Source of the DNA: a virus
Direction: 5' to 3' (one strand)
DNA: 64,000 bases
IMG/VR virus record: IMGVR_UViG_3300005253_000193
Location: 1 to 64,000 of that record
Shown: positions 3,863-14,240 of the stretch, piece after piece
Position numbering within the stretch: the stretch's first letter is position 1
Layout of the letters: each line of letters starts with the position of its first letter
The notes under the pieces: model-generated
Told to the model about the DNA's origin: nothing
The model's database searches: none
Seen by the model: only the letters and a program-made list of their open reading frames with translations
Position numbers and translations under genes: made by a program

Positions 3863-3910
3863 AGCCGAGGCTAAAAAATTGTGGACTTCTTTGATCCAAT
3901 GGCCCCGGCT
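3863..3910 (-). ncRNA. solitary stem-closed tigRNA-like unit
   Basis: + strand: agccgagg-ct-aaaaaattg-tggacttct-ttgatccaa-tgg-ccccggct. Confidence 0.8.
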
Positions 3911-3920
3911 AATTGTGTTG

Positions 3921-5111
3921 TCACGAAATGTCGAGTAGGTCCCCAAAGGGGGGAAGGTGCTCCCTTTTTGAGGTAGAAGCCCACATCACCGGATACTCCG
4001 GCTCCTGTGGGAAGGAGTTGCAGTACATGTCCGTCATGTAGATGAAACACGCCGGAATGATACCGTTGTCCTCAACCCACTTGAACGGAGGTTTGAAGTC
4101 CGTACCACCCCCACCCTTGGCGTGAAGCCTGATGGGAAGGTCGGTCTTGTCGAACTCCTCAGTACCAGCCACCTTGGCATCGCAGTAGACGACGTAGACC
4201 TTTTCGATGTCAATGGTGGATAGGATTTCAGACAGCTCCGTGGCAAATCTGGTCAGCTCGACCTGGGAAATGCTCCCGGATGTGTCAACGGCAATCACGA
4301 TGCAGCCGATTTCCTGGCTGTGAAGGCTGGGGAGGTAGATTCCCCGACCGAGGTGTCGACGGTTTGGCTTTAGCCAGGAGTAGTCGTTCCTGGCTGAGTG
4401 CTCCACAAACTGACGTAGGCGGTCCACCCAATTGACCTTGGGATGGAGCAACTCACCAACAAACCTTTCCAGATCAGCCGGAAATTGTCCTTGGGACTTC
4501 GCGACAGCCGCCGCCTGTGCCACAAGTATCTTGACGTCGGCCATGGCTTTCGACTCGGCGGCAGAAACGGAGGGTGATCCCCCGTTGTTCCTTTTTCCTT
4601 TCTTGTTGTTGCCGTTTCTGCCAGCACCCCGCGATGGATGATCCTTCAGACCTCCACAACAAGTCTTTTGTTTGCTCTCCTTTATTTTCTTTTTCAACTT
4701 GTTGTAGATTTCATCTGCCGACATGCCCTTGAATTGCTCATCCAACAACACATCATCCGCAAGACTGAAGCCGGAACTTTCGAGGATCTGATTGATGGCG
4801 AAGTCCCCGGCTATGTTCCATAACAAGGGGTCACGGTTCTTGCGACGTACCGGATGGGCCATTGCAACGTGCATGACTTCATGGGCTACGCTGAACTCGA
4901 CTTCCTTGTCGCTTTCTGCAATGATGACATCGGGCTCGTATCCGAGCATTTCACCATTGGTCCAGTAAGCACCGCCCACTCTTTTCACGCAACCAACATC
5001 CTCAACCAATCTCATCCTCAAGGCGATAGTTCCGAAGAAGGCGTGGTTGAGGATCAACGAGGACCTGGCTCGAGTGAGCTTGTATCTGGCTTCCTGATTT
5101 ATTTCGTTCAT
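3921..5111 (-). CDS. DUF2201-type metallopeptidase plus VWA domain protein
   Basis: HEVMH zincin motif; VDTSGS MIDAS; GGGGTDF; YMTD. Confidence 0.85.
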   Translation of the reverse strand: MNEINQEARYKLTRARSSLILNHAFFGTIALRMRLVEDVGCVKRVGGAYWTNGEMLGYEPDVIIAESDKEVEFSVAHEVMHVAMAHPVRRKNRDPLLWNIAGDFAINQILESSGFSLADDVLLDEQFKGMSADEIYNKLKKKIKESKQKTCCGGLKDHPSRGAGRNGNNKKGKRNNGGSPSVSAAESKAMADVKILVAQAAAVAKSQGQFPADLERFVGELLHPKVNWVDRLRQFVEHSARNDYSWLKPNRRHLGRGIYLPSLHSQEIGCIVIAVDTSGSISQVELTRFATELSEILSTIDIEKVYVVYCDAKVAGTEEFDKTDLPIRLHAKGGGGTDFKPPFKWVEDNGIIPACFIYMTDMYCNSFPQEPEYPVMWASTSKREHLPPFGDLLDIS

Positions 5112-5155
5112 TGTCTCCTCCTGTTGCTTTCGTGTGACAATTAAATTGCCAAATT

Positions 5156-5205
5156 TGGAAGGGGCTCATGCCGAATGGTTTGCTCCCTCCATCTGGCCCC
5201 TCCCA
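5156..5205 (-). ncRNA. solitary stem-closed tigRNA-like unit
   Basis: tggaagggg-ct-catgccgaa-tggtttgct-ccctccatc-tgg-cccctccca. Confidence 0.8.
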
Positions 5206-5213
5206 TAATGAGT

Positions 5214-5696
5214 TCACGCTCGTGTGGGAATTAACCCAAGACGTAGATGGTTTGAATTTGTTGAAGGGCTAAGACGGAGTTTGAGCAGTTGTTGTTGCCC
5301 TTCCATCGTATAGTAGTTTGTTCCTTCCGGAATTAAATGGGCAGACATGGATGGTATGCGCCAGATGGTCATGAGGTCGTTGACCTCATGTTTTCTGAAG
5401 CCCATGTTTTTGAGCTCCGTGAGTGAGACATCATCCCAATCGATGGGTCTGAACGGATGGGCATTCGGATTTATTTGGATGTGGTGTTTCTTGACTGCAT
5501 TTGAACCGCCGCCACCCGACCACTTGTAGTAGACGAAGTGTCCCTGTGAGGCTACCTCCTTGAGGAGGTTTAGTTGGGTTCCGCAAAGCAGTCCGATCTT
5601 GATGTCTTTTTGAGTTGCGCCCCCATGTACATACATTGAAGCCGCACGGGACTTCAGGCTTCCTTCCTTGAAGCCAAAAAGGTCACGTGTCGTCAT
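5214..5696 (-). CDS. protein with N-terminal DUF3489-like winged-helix-like domain
   Basis: FGFKEGSLKSRAASMYVHGGATQKDI...QLNLLKEV, similar to 2706-3221. Confidence 0.6.
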   Translation of the reverse strand: MTTRDLFGFKEGSLKSRAASMYVHGGATQKDIKIGLLCGTQLNLLKEVASQGHFVYYKWSGGGGSNAVKKHHIQINPNAHPFRPIDWDDVSLTELKNMGFRKHEVNDLMTIWRIPSMSAHLIPEGTNYYTMEGQQQLLKLRLSPSTNSNHLRLGLIPTRA

Positions 5697-5734
5697 GATC
5701 TCCTCCTGTTGCTGTCCTATTAAATGGACAAATG

Positions 5735-5780
5735 GAAGGGGCTTGCGTCTTTTGGGTTTCTGATATTCGCTGGCCCCTTC
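5735..5780 (-). ncRNA. solitary stem-closed tigRNA-like unit
   Basis: gaagggg-ct-tgcgtcttt-tgggtttct-gatattcgc-tgg-ccccttc. Confidence 0.85.
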
Positions 5781-5790
5781 TTAATTGAGT

Positions 5791-13093: not shown

Positions 13094-13411
13094 TCACCTC
13101 ATTTTGAATTGATCTAGCCGCCGCTGAAGGTACTTGCCGATGTCGTGATTGAAGGAAGCATTGGTTTTCCACTGCCATACGATGCATCTGGACACGTCCG
13201 AGTTAAAGGAAATCGGAGCAATTTCCACATTGAGTGGAATGTTTCCCTTGATATACTTGACCTTGCCAAAGGTATAGCCGATGCCACATGGACGCTCGAC
13301 CGTTAAAGGAACGCGCACGACGAATACGCGCCGCCCCTTGGACATGGAACCGCCAAAGGCTTGCATTGCGGCCTTTTGACTTCCCCATATATGACCAGAT
13401 TGTTCGGTCAT
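13094..13411 (-). CDS. hypothetical protein
   Basis: CAGCAACGGAGGAGATC-ATG leader. Confidence 0.65.
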   Translation of the reverse strand: MTEQSGHIWGSQKAAMQAFGGSMSKGRRVFVVRVPLTVERPCGIGYTFGKVKYIKGNIPLNVEIAPISFNSDVSRCIVWQWKTNASFNHDIGKYLQRRLDQFKMR

Positions 13412-13465
13412 GATCTCCTCCGTTGCTGCCAAATTGGCAAACAAGGCACAGGAAACATCCCATGC

Positions 13466-13684
13466 CTAAAATTTATCCATGTTTTCACAGAACGCATGGG
13501 CAAGCTCTTCGCTTTCAAACCATTGAATGTTTAACCAACCCTCCTTTCTGAGTCTGGCCTCATGACGTAGATGGTCTGATTTGAAGGTTCCATTCGCGTA
13601 GTTGGTCCTGGCCTTGCCCCACGAGTACCTACCCTTCAATACATCATCGGTCCTACAACCAGCCCAATACTGCTTCTCTGCCAT
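13466..13684 (-). CDS. small protein related to the YNAF family
   Basis: ends WFESEELAHAFCENMDKF*. Confidence 0.6.
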   Translation of the reverse strand: MAEKQYWAGCRTDDVLKGRYSWGKARTNYANGTFKSDHLRHEARLRKEGWLNIQWFESEELAHAFCENMDKF

Positions 13685-13703
13685 GGTTTCTTCCTTTGTC
13701 CAT

Positions 13704-13829
13704 TTACTTTGTTGGACGCTTGATAGTATGTCGAAGGGAACGACGTTCATGTCGATTTCGTGGCCTTCCCGTTATTGGCCCAACGATCCATTCCAGGAGC
13801 AACCATACCCATCGCCCCAATCGCTTCAT
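13704..13829 (-). CDS. small hypothetical protein
   Basis: GGAGGAG SD before MKRLGRW. Confidence 0.5.
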   Translation of the reverse strand: MKRLGRWVWLLLEWIVGPITGRPRNRHERRSLRHTIKRPTK

Positions 13830-13861
13830 AATCTCCTCCATTGCTTTGTAATTGATTAAAG

Positions 13862-13905
13862 AGGGGGCTTTTGTCGATTGGGTTTCTAACCACGTATGGC
13901 CCCCT
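13862..13905 (-). ncRNA. solitary stem-closed tigRNA-like unit
   Basis: aggggg-ct-tttgtcgat-tgggtttct-aaccacgta-tgg-ccccct. Confidence 0.85.
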
Positions 13906-14161
13906 AATGGAAGGTTGGTTTGTCGAAGCACCCATCTTTATTAGGACAGATGCTGCATACTTTGGCCTTCAACAGGTCATTCACAAAGTTTGAGCTCTCT
14001 TCCATGGACCTGAAAGAGGCTAGTACAGTCCAACCCTCACGTTTTTCAACGCACGTCTTGGAGTCGCCATGAAGGAAAACGTCGGCGTTAACCACCTCGA
14101 TAGTGACGTCACCTTCTCCAGTGGTATCTGAACTTATGACCAGGTATTTGTTCTCGGGCAT
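13904..14161 (-). CDS. hypothetical protein
   Basis: GGAGGAGATC-ATG leader. Confidence 0.65.
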   Translation of the reverse strand: MPENKYLVISSDTTGEGDVTIEVVNADVFLHGDSKTCVEKREGWTVLASFRSMEESSNFVNDLLKAKVCSICPNKDGCFDKPTFH

Positions 14162-14192
14162 GATCTCCTCCCATCGTCTTAAATTGTCAAAA

Positions 14193-14240
14193 TGGAGGGG
14201 CTTGGCAACTTGGGATTTCTACCGGTCTATGGCCCCTCCA
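14193..14240 (-). ncRNA. solitary stem-closed tigRNA-like unit
   Basis: tggagggg-ct-tggcaactt-gggatttct-accggtcta-tgg-cccctcca. Confidence 0.85.

Follow-up and report, generated by a model that had tools for sequence, protein, structure and literature searches.

The uncultured phage described here has a genome of 106 kb, from which we analyzed as our window the 64,000-nt stretch of record IMGVR_UViG_3300005253_000193. Candidate guides occur in this phage in two forms, as ordinary tandem TIGR arrays and as ten single two-spacer units closed by a hairpin (Table 1). The solitary units all lie in sense orientation with respect to the operon (10/10), one per gap in ten gaps between genes; they span about 10.4 kb, with about 270 nt to 4.3 kb between adjacent units and no tandem arrangement beside tas. 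A preliminary description had listed these ten units, and every one of them is present on the minus strand. In arrays I–III, edge and loop repeats alternate in tandem with a 36-nt period, which is not the case for the solitary units, as they have no edge repeat and no adjoining unit. The gene tasA is the only one with a Tas/Nop domain in the 106-kb genome, and its product has no nuclease domain. A scan for intrinsic terminators (3–8-nt loop, at least 5 T) called two canonical sites, and transcription of the unit with seven solitary units, array I and tasA probably stops at the one that separates array IIa from array IIb.

Table 1. Features of the locus, in window coordinates; all are on the minus strand (-).
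Feature	Position	Core	Stem arms (5'/3')	R1 score (bits)	Remarks
u14201	14193..14240	14201-14232	UGGAGGGG/CCCCUCCA	61.0	Spacers TAGACCGGT and AAGTTGCCA, loop AAAT; flanked by 58-aa and 85-aa genes
u13868	13862..13905	13868-13899	AGGGGG/CCCCCU (6 bp)	50.5	5' arm overlapped by upstream stop codon TAG
u13048	13039..13088	13048-13079	UGGGAGGGA/UCCCUCCCA	63.3	Compensatory A-U pair adjoining the CCA/AG motifs
u12758	12749..12798	12758-12789	UGGGAGGGG/CCCCUUCCA	64.5	
u12488	12480..12527	12488-12519	UGGAAGGA/UCCUUCCA	57.2	Immediately upstream of PNKP-type phosphatase gene
u11832	11824..11871	11832-11863	GGGAAGGG/CCCCUUCC	59.4	One mismatch or bulge in the stem
u10047	10039..10087	10047-10079	UGUCGGGG/CCCCGACA	57.0	Spacer B of 10 nt; flanked by MoxR-like ATPase gene and array I
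Array I	9262..9996				Dual-repeat TIGR array; CCA-N9-AG units, CGAG edge and AAAT/AAAC loop repeats alternating, period 36
tasA	8233..9204				323 aa; Pfam Transposase_20
Array IIa	8093..8232				Dual-repeat; begins at the tasA stop codon
Terminator	8062..8086				Canonical intrinsic, terminator scan; between arrays IIa and IIb
Array IIb	7750..8036				Dual-repeat; first unit with stem-loop-type 5' arm GGAGGGG and no 3' partner
u5742	5735..5780	5742-5773	GAAGGGG/CCCCUUC	62.2	
u5165	5156..5205	5165-5196	UGGGAGGGG/CCCCUUCCA	53.7	Upstream of DUF2201 metallopeptidase/VWA gene
u3871	3863..3910	3871-3902	AGCCGGGG/CCUCGGCU	56.5	Downstream of DUF2201 gene
Terminator	2663..2685				Canonical intrinsic, terminator scan; end of the downstream unit with u5742, u5165 and u3871
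Array III	2183..2594				Dual-repeat

All ten solitary units read stem(6-9 bp)-CCA-N9-AG-N4-CC(A/C)-N9/10-AG-stem', with CCA, AG, CC and AG invariant and with spacers of 9+9 nt in nine units and 9+10 nt in u10047. We searched both strands of the window with the regular expression CCA-N9-AG-N4-CCM-N9/10-AG and compared the matches with shuffles. Results showed 55 matches on the minus strand (10 solitary and 45 in arrays) and one on the plus strand, against 0.58 in shuffles, while the pattern with two closing base pairs gave 11 matches where 0.14 were expected, the chance expectation for such units being about 0.1–0.6 per window. The stems had been said to differ in sequence while keeping their pairing, and this is borne out by the alignment, in which 90% of cells are paired compared to 42–67% when the partner is slid, double changes are found in six of nine pairs, and the observed covariation score is reached by none of 500 shuffles; the pairings given as examples (GGAAGGA/UCCUUCC, UGUCGGGG/CCCCGACA and AGCCG/CGGCU) are correct. 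Predicted folds are clearly stabler than shuffled sequences for eight units (z from -2.4 to -5.6) and marginally so for u13868 (z -2.1), while u11832, the weakest of the ten, is not stabler (z -0.8). The covariance-model scan that had been proposed for this genome, carried out with a model called R1, returned exactly the ten solitary units at 50–65 bits, and scores elsewhere in the 106 kb, array units included, were 24 bits or less. A comparison with Rfam gave no family match for the units.

The core of the solitary units had been described as that of the arrays, with the edge repeat replaced by a stem, and indeed the core letters, the spacer length and the loop repeat are identical to those of the phage's own arrays, whose counterparts are the dual-repeat TIGR systems (FpTIGR, SpTasH, TaTasR; Faure et al. 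2025; NAR 2026, PMC13421893). The middle N4 (AAAT, AAAC, AAAA, AAGT, CAAT and similar) corresponds to the loop repeat of the arrays in 10/10 units and to the CGAG edge repeat in none (0/10), so that the stem stands for the edge repeat. In contrast to dual-repeat systems, the solitary units thus carry a 6–9-bp Watson–Crick helix in place of this repeat, and they are non-tandem and embedded between protein-coding genes.

The units also share features with the stem-loop TIGR arrays of PlTasA, BlTasA, MbTasA, PateTasR and CsTasR, which belong to TasA or dead TasR proteins (Faure et al. 2025, PMC12045711; Xu et al. 2026). Both have two 8–12-nt spacers, each with box C-like and box D-like nucleotides on its sides, a palindromic closing stem of varying sequence, about 9 nt of loop separating the spacers (AG + N4 + CCA), a nearby Nop-domain Tas gene, here a TasA without nuclease, and guides located upstream, downstream or even inside genes. 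However, the phage units are solitary rather than tandem, one per gap over the whole span, and coexist with four dual-repeat array blocks, while the sole Tas of the phage is of the dual-repeat family. The conserved CUU motif that marks the processing site at the stem base of stem-loop arrays is moreover just partly present, standing at the base in three units and within the 3' arm in five, and missing from u14201, u13048 and u10047. These comparisons support that the solitary units are TIGR-type dual-spacer modules with covarying stems, on the sense strand, adjoining a single Nop-domain TasA gene.

We also looked at the junctions with the neighbouring genes. The stems begin 0–10 nt after a stop codon, in line with the limit of about 11 nt first given, and the units end 26–50 nt before the next start. 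The flanks are conserved, with AUU before the stem and (A/C)UUU after it; in 9/10 units the latter is followed, mostly through a small hairpin, by (A)GCAAC-AGGAGGAGA-N2-3-ATG, that is, by the GGAGGAGA ribosome site of the next gene, as the preliminary description had stated. After u10047 there is GGAGGAG, which resembles an SD, then a 4-codon mini-frame with GTG start, and next array I. The solitary units are part of a conserved two-hairpin junction module. Plain hairpins occupy the equivalent position at other junctions of the same operon (13412-13468 and 11114-11185), so a purely structural role of the stems is possible, and a very stable hairpin with arms of like kind and without the core is found at 14445-14500.

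Such hairpins, together with the short U run after the units and the absence of units from about 100 related Tas loci, would suit ordinary intercistronic hairpins that stabilise the mRNA, cause pausing or weak termination, or serve RNase processing, with loops derived from array units by recombination and no role for TasA. We consider this improbable. An interior as long as 32 nt comes at a cost for a structural hairpin, only 3–4 U follow the stems, and the terminator scan, which called the two true terminators nearby, called no unit (0/10). Moreover, the invariance of CCA, AG, CC and AG in 10/10 units, with spacers randomised at fixed length, argues for selection on a Tas-type motif. Plain rho-independent termination, which had been named as an outcome that would speak against a guide function, was rejected as an identity of the units on the same grounds, their interiors being 32–33 nt long.

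Spacers and scaffold behave differently. Pairwise identity among the solitary units is 0.27 in the spacers, compared to 0.25 for random sequences, and reaches 0.65–0.67 in the arms, 0.55 in the loop and 0.59 in the 30 nt before the ATG, with 14 invariant columns in the alignment; therefore the scaffold is under selection while spacer turnover is free or driven. We also compared solitary with array spacers and found 7 similar pairs, against 2.97 +/- 1.63 in column-permuted controls (P about 0.025). No self-targets of the solitary-unit spacers were found in the phage genome. TIGR-Tas spacers work in tandem on both strands of their DNA target, and the spacer combinations rcA+B and B+rcA gave no match beyond chance, either in the phage genome or across 1.8 Mb of retrieved loci.

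This lack of spacer targets in the phage genome and the retrieved loci would be expected if the units were cis-acting mRNA sites for TasA (or an RNase) and not guides, TasA controlling from CCA/AG the cleavage, the 3'-end protection or the translation of neighbouring genes, and the spacers being length-constrained filler. Their strict placement between stop codon and next start and their membership in the junction module point the same way, and fixed-length spacers of random-level identity suit filler as well as guides. From the sequence, the purine-rich 5' arms are also SD-like, and pairing is possible between CUUCC-type 3' arms and the GGAGG that lies downstream; however, two units have unrelated stems (AGCCGGGG and UGUCGGGG), so SD/anti-SD mimicry cannot be general. 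The excess of similarity between solitary and array spacers is unexpected for filler, and keeping the full dual-spacer guide geometry just for docking is not parsimonious. A role of the units as cis-acting sites is on balance unlikely, and it is in any case compatible with guide use.

The TasA protein itself was characterized by profile and structure searches. Its best profile matches are TasR (9mty, E 1.8e-21) and TasH (2.1e-16), which are also the best hits of a fold search with its predicted model (pLDDT 88.6). The C-terminal tail PYSEGKLGIVHEG contains Y312 and H321, each invariant in 32 homologues; Y312 aligns with Y289 of SpTasH, the catalytic residue of that protein (PMC13421893), and the tail is flexible in the predicted model. 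A Tyr/His tail of this kind is typical of dual-repeat systems, whose arrays are processed by the Tas Tyr/His loop, while the loop is reported absent from all clades of stem-loop-array Tas proteins (Xu et al. 2026, bioRxiv 10.64898/2026.09.09.750476). Its retention in the phage TasA is a difference from stem-loop systems and a point against reading the units as stem-loop guides. TasA belongs to the dual-repeat sequence family, with homologues 46–58% identical, and about half of 102 homologue loci (Tas 38–54% identical) carry arrays with CGAG edges and A-rich loops as detected by regex.

The preliminary description had also proposed to scan related phages. In the 102 Tas-homologue loci (about 1.3 Mb) no solitary unit was found, and the exact unit pattern was missing from IMG/VR and no commoner in metagenomes than expected by chance; neither a close relative of the phage nor any relative sharing its layout was found. 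This restriction to one lineage, as well as the repetition of an entire junction cassette with 59–67% identity outside the spacers, might indicate non-functional relics, or a selfish intergenic cassette (unit, small hairpin and ribosome site) duplicated within this phage. Such an origin seems very improbable to us, considering that decay should be even, whereas the spacers are saturated and 14 motif columns are invariant, that the stems stay paired through compensatory changes, and that all ten units (10/10) are in sense orientation.

Considering all these data, we interpret the ten elements, with moderate confidence, as single tigRNA genes of the stem-loop type, which belong to one TIGR-TasA system and are placed in intercistronic gaps of two polycistronic mRNAs. 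Judging from the sequence, the units are most likely stem-loop tigRNA guides co-transcribed within the operon mRNAs and bound by TasA, and an mRNA doubling as guide precursor is the reading that fits their anatomy best. In this mechanism the helix would join CCA, the box C-like element, with AG, the box D-like one, and do the job that neighbouring repeats do in an array, so that a TasA dimer is able to bind. The unit could then be cut from the mRNA by the Tyr/His tail of TasA, at the place that corresponds to the edge repeat, giving a 36-nt RNA that begins with GG and ends with CC; alternatively, a host RNase could cut at the conserved flanks, AUU and (A/C)UUU. In the resulting RNP, the two spacers in tandem would bind and block an 18-bp DNA site. 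Since TasA lacks a nuclease, it is expected to repress its targets and not to cleave them, and these targets would belong to the host or to competing elements and not to the phage genome. Ten cistron borders bound or cut in this way would also influence how stable the host mRNA is and how it is processed; therefore, the two possibilities raised at first, guide precursor and control by TasA, are probably two sides of one mechanism.

A bolder version is that a dual-repeat-type TasA with its Tyr/His tail also matures stem-closed, mRNA-embedded guides, so that maturation cuts the transcript at the cistron border and mechanically ties guide supply to the stability or the translation of about ten adjacent genes. 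We regard this as possible, though rather doubtful. [quoted passage not shown]

The likeness to snoRNAs noted earlier holds for the layout. By analogy with box C/D s(no)RNAs, including intron-encoded and polycistronic ones, a terminal stem would close a two-guide RNA for a Nop-domain protein, hosted inside transcripts that also encode proteins. It does not extend to the components: RUGAUGA and CUGA boxes are absent, the motifs being just CCA and AG, the guides are 9 nt long, the TIGR family targets DNA and not RNA methylation sites, and Fibrillarin (PF01269) and L7Ae (PF01248) gave no match in the phage genome. Membership of the units in box C/D s(no)RNPs was therefore rejected.

The earlier statement that guides of this kind had not been reported must be qualified, as stem-loop TIGR units are already published and stem-loop tigRNAs are known at flexible positions, even inside the tas coding sequence (Xu et al. 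2026, bioRxiv 10.64898/2026.09.09.750476). What appears new is that dual-repeat and stem-loop forms are combined under a single TasA and that the solitary units are strictly intercistronic; the mixture of arrays and lone units is not described in the TIGR-Tas literature surveyed. In this phage both guide forms share their box letters and loop and a single TasA, in which the Tyr/His loop is retained. Provided that the lone units are functional, one Tas protein can serve both forms, a point of relevance to the evolution of one architecture from the other, and guides can be hidden singly in gaps up to 5 kb from tas, where surveys that look for arrays close to this gene would give too low a count. 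Offering stem, loop and spacer in ten natural versions, the locus would then be a compact test bed for the requirements of a solitary guide in folding, excision and loading. Should the units be purely structural, they would still illustrate the recruitment of array units as operon punctuation. Finally, support for the guide reading also comes from L146, a small Tas locus apart from this one, in which stem-loop units of this core immediately precede its SD and immediately follow its stop codon.

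We analyzed the ten solitary units in the whole virus record, a single contig of 105,963 bp rated 100% complete by CheckV, in which the minus strand carries the genes of the first 15 kb of the window. Read on this strand, all ten sites of the preliminary description were present in the form it gave, stem-CCA-N9-AG-N4-CC(A/C)-N9-AG-stem', with a second spacer of N10 in one unit. The bare core pattern gave 55 matches on the minus strand versus 1 on the plus strand and 0.58 in Markov shuffles, and the core with two closing pairs gave 11 matches versus 0.14 expected. Of the 55 core matches, 45 fell in dual-repeat TIGR arrays, whose period is 36 nt (see table), and the other ten were solitary. 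In the arrays, the CCA-N9-AG units are separated by linkers alternating between CGAG (edge) and AAAT or AAAC (loop). The middle linker of the solitary units was of the A-rich loop type in 10/10 and CGAG in none, so that the stem occupies the exact place of the edge repeat. The anatomy of the ten units is clean and statistically solid, in one genome.

Coordinates of the features discussed in the text
Feature	Position	Strand	Context
Hairpin resembling a solitary unit	14445-14500	-	possible eleventh unit
Plain tetraloop hairpin	13412-13468	-	first place of two-hairpin junction (junction comparison)
PNKP-type HAD phosphatase	11877-12443	-	between two solitary units
Plain tetraloop hairpin	11114-11185	-	first place of two-hairpin junction (junction comparison)
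MoxR-like AAA+ ATPase	10097-11113	-	tasA flank
Array I	~9262-9996	-	dual-repeat TIGR array
tasA	8233-9204	-	sole Tas gene
Array IIa	8093-8232	-	dual-repeat TIGR array
Intrinsic terminator	8062-8086	-	
Array IIb	7750-8036	-	dual-repeat TIGR array
Hammerhead_1 match	6464-6504	-	within 287-aa gene
287-aa protein of unknown type	5791-6654	-	tasA flank
DUF2201 metallopeptidase/VWA protein	3921-5111	-	tasA flank
Intrinsic terminator	2663-2685	-	
Array III	2183-2594	-	dual-repeat TIGR array

We also tested the nine-pair closing helix in the alignment of the ten units, using as controls the 3' partner slid by 1-3 columns and 500 shuffles. Results showed that 90% of the helix cells were paired, against 42-67% with the slid partner, and that six of the nine pairs had changed on both sides, for example from G-C to A-U beside CCA/AG or, farther out, from GGAG/CUCC to GUCG/CGAC and GCCG/CGGC. 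None of the 500 shuffles matched the observed covariation score. The stems thus differ in sequence and keep pairing, as had been proposed. The helix was recovered in 10/10 single-sequence folds; in eight units the fold clearly exceeded shuffles in stability (z -2.4 to -5.6), in u13868 (units are named by core start) it was marginal (z -2.1) and in u11832, which has a stem mismatch, it did not exceed them (z -0.8). A covariance model built from the alignment and scanned over the genome, the check suggested in the preliminary description, retrieved exactly the ten units at 50-65 bits, the next matches being array units, which did not exceed 24 bits, and no further copy was found in the other 92 kb of the 106-kb genome. 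Rfam gave no family match.

We compared the ten units with one another, segment by segment. Spacers A and B both gave a mean pairwise identity of 0.27, where 0.25 is expected at random, while the two stem arms gave 0.65-0.67, the loop 0.55 and the 30 nt upstream of the start codon 0.59; 14 columns were invariant. CCA, AG, CC and AG kept at a fixed 9-nt spacing around randomized spacers would not be expected of a relic, which makes it very improbable that the units are non-functional duplicated cassettes, nor of a purely structural hairpin, and we consider it unlikely that they are ordinary junction hairpins whose loops were acquired from the arrays. On these patterns, the ten elements are rather probably stem-loop-type tigRNA (guide RNA) genes, co-transcribed within operon mRNAs. 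Between stem-loop and array spacers, seven pairs had at least 7/9 identity versus 2.97 +/- 1.63 in column-permuted controls (P ~0.025), a weak hint that both may come from one pool.

The units lie at cistron borders. Each starts 0-10 nt after a stop codon (10/10), in agreement with the placement first described, and in u13868 the stop codon forms part of the stem. Directly 3' of each unit stands (A/C)UUU, followed in nine of the ten by a small hairpin of 4-6 bp and by (A)GCAAC-AGGAGGAGA-N2-3-ATG of the next gene; the nine units said to precede the ribosome site AGGAGGAGA were therefore all found. The tenth, u10047, precedes array I and has downstream an SD-like GGAGGAG and then a 4-codon GTG mini-frame. 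It is less probable, but deserves consideration, that the units are cis-acting sites for TasA or an RNase, with spacers serving as filler.

The plain-terminator reading was rejected, as the units have interiors of 32-33 nt and no more than 3-4 U after the stem. Only two canonical intrinsic terminators occur on the minus strand and no unit qualifies as one, which suggests two long transcripts, one with seven units, array I, tasA and array IIa and the other with array IIb and three units. The operon junctions between 2700 and 14500 (minus strand) share a two-hairpin module, with a large hairpin directly after the stop codon and then a small one with compensatory changes; at two junctions the first place is taken by a plain tetraloop hairpin. 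One more hairpin is very stable (-43 kcal/mol, z -5.3). Its arms, GGGGAGGGGAGGA/UCCUCCCCUC, are purine-rich and of the stem-loop-unit type, and its trailer is that of u13868, but the dual-spacer core with CCA/AG is missing; this hairpin may represent an eleventh unit that has decayed. On the same strand, stem-loop-type 5' arms without a 3' partner precede the first unit of array IIb (8001-8036; GGAGGGG) and the start of array I (~9997-10020; GGAGGAG), which gives the impression of recombination between arrays and solitary units.

The only Tas gene of the genome encodes a protein of 323 aa matching Pfam Transposase_20 (IS110/Nop-type domain). Its family profile matched TasR (9mty) with an E value of 1.8e-21 and TasH with 2.1e-16. 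In the AlphaFold model (pLDDT 88.6), coiled-coil helices begin right from the start, and the best structural matches were TasR and TasH, with IS110-family bridge recombinases next. As the model leaves no space for a RuvC or HNH domain, the protein is a TasA. Its flexible C-terminal tail, PYSEGKLGIVHEG, contains Y312 and H321, invariant in 32 homologues, and Y312 aligned to Y289 of SpTasH, which together with H296 forms a metal-independent pre-tigRNA cleavage dyad (PMC13421893). Compared with most of 31 homologues the protein has two insertions, of which that at 219-232 is unique and that at 255-274 is found elsewhere only in the two nearest homologues, P0002 (58%) and P0003 (56%).

From helix to DNA, we infer the following course. 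The helix of a solitary unit would substitute for the neighbouring repeats in drawing the box C-like CCA close to the box D-like AG, so as to present both to the Nop domain; the unit would then be bound by TasA and freed from the mRNA, and the resulting RNP would bind and block an 18-bp DNA site, as has been demonstrated for other TasA proteins. Release might be the work of the dyad in TasA itself, which by cutting 2 nt outside CCA and AG would give the standard 36-nt RNA with GG/CC ends, or of a host RNase acting in the AUU and (A/C)UUU flanks, which are conserved; the second route would agree with the host-RNase processing model for stem-loop systems (Xu 2026, bioRxiv 10.64898/2026.09.09.750476). 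With either route, cutting or protection of the mRNA would fall on the cistron borders. The two alternatives first offered, an mRNA doubling as guide precursor or TasA control of the flanking genes, are therefore compatible; the sequence evidence best supports the guide genes, and the interpretation first given is supported in part.

We also looked at the neighbouring genes. For the ATPase, the 287-aa protein and the DUF2201 protein alike, homologues lay no more than 10 kb from a Tas homologue in 16-18 of 103 loci, suggesting a recurrent association of these three genes with Tas. PNKP-type phosphatases heal 2',3'-cyclic or 3'-phosphate RNA ends, and a stand-alone enzyme of this type (Pfam HAD_PNKP, E 1.8e-34) is encoded in the island. 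A metal-independent Tyr/His cut would leave ends of the kind that PNKP accepts, and a link of this phosphatase to TasA is speculative. None of ten small island proteins had an RNA-related match in Pfam or PHROGs. The weak Rfam match to Hammerhead_1 scored 23.8 bits, below the gathering score of 34 (E 0.08), and is probably due to chance.

Stem-loop TIGR units were already published (Faure 2025, PMC12045711), as were guides whose position is flexible and may even fall within tas, and TasA repression (Xu 2026, bioRxiv 10.64898/2026.09.09.750476). The earlier statement that no report was known of single guides spread through an operon in this way therefore needs some qualification; the arrangement of one unit per gap across ten cistron borders was not found in the TIGR papers that mention stem-loop units. 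Nor did these papers describe one genome in which dual-repeat arrays and stem-closed units with an identical core occur beside a single TasA that bears Tyr/His. In contrast to the published stem-loop class, the phage units are not in tandem arrays and its Tas keeps the Tyr/His loop, and in contrast to the dual-repeat class, the solitary units have no edge repeat; the finding cuts across the published dichotomy between the two. The snoRNA likeness first noticed did not extend to box C/D sRNAs, a reading that was rejected, as the C/D box consensus was absent from the units and fibrillarin and L7Ae from the genome.

A total of 1,922 TasA homologues were found, the nearest 58% identical. From a Tas profile search we examined 102 loci, of which IMG/VR supplied 80 and GTDB genomes 22 (Tas 38-54% identical). 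Dual-repeat arrays were detected by regex in about half of them, CGAG being the commonest edge, and the suggested scan of relatives with regex and the covariance model revealed no solitary stem-closed unit in any of the 102; apparent 5-bp stems were rejected as self-complementary CGCG edge repeats. No close phage relative was found by megablast of the island against phage records or by TasA alone against IMG/VR, and the DUF2201 protein led only to relatives 35% identical. The exact pattern GGGGCCA-N9-AG-N4-CCM-N9-AGCCCC had no match in IMG/VR and 86 single matches in JGI metagenomes, about the number expected by chance, of which only two, on contigs L146 and L098, looked real. L146, a brine metagenome contig of 2954 bp, carries a separate small stem-loop-type Tas locus (1440-2630) whose 263-aa Tas matches the family profile (hhalign 97.8%) and has a C-terminus without the Tyr/His tail. 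It has at least four stem-loop units with the core CCA-N9-AG-AAAN-CCA-N9-AG, one abutting the tas ribosome site on its 5' side and one directly after the tas stop codon, so the core letters are common to a stem-loop-type system and the dual-repeat-type system of the phage. L098 (2094 bp, without Tas) has a lone unit at 1701-1767 (minus strand), in which a 12-bp stem and a AGAAACCCA loop are combined with spacers rich in A/T and an extended U run. This unit follows a small gene of the zinc-ribbon-like kind, and an integrase and a tRNA-like end are close by; it resembles a terminator, and the match might be due to chance.

Targets were searched with both tandem arrangements of the spacers, as the exact geometry (spacer per side) cannot be fixed from the text of Faure et al., the ten units being run with gaps of 0-4 and at most 3 mismatches and 32 array guides with gaps of 0-2 and at most 2 mismatches. 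Neither set gave targets above chance in the phage genome or in the fetched loci (1.8 Mb), so that by this search the system has no target in its own genome. Few natural targets of TIGR guides have been reported (Faure 2025, PMC12045711; Xu 2026, bioRxiv 10.64898/2026.09.09.750476).

Among cultured phages, the closest Tas (35% identity) is that of Ralstonia phage phiRSL1 (NC_010811.2, 13180-15642), annotated as 'transposase' ORF034 and followed by a 1.4-kb stretch without annotated gene, which is likely a TIGR array in a phage with a known host.
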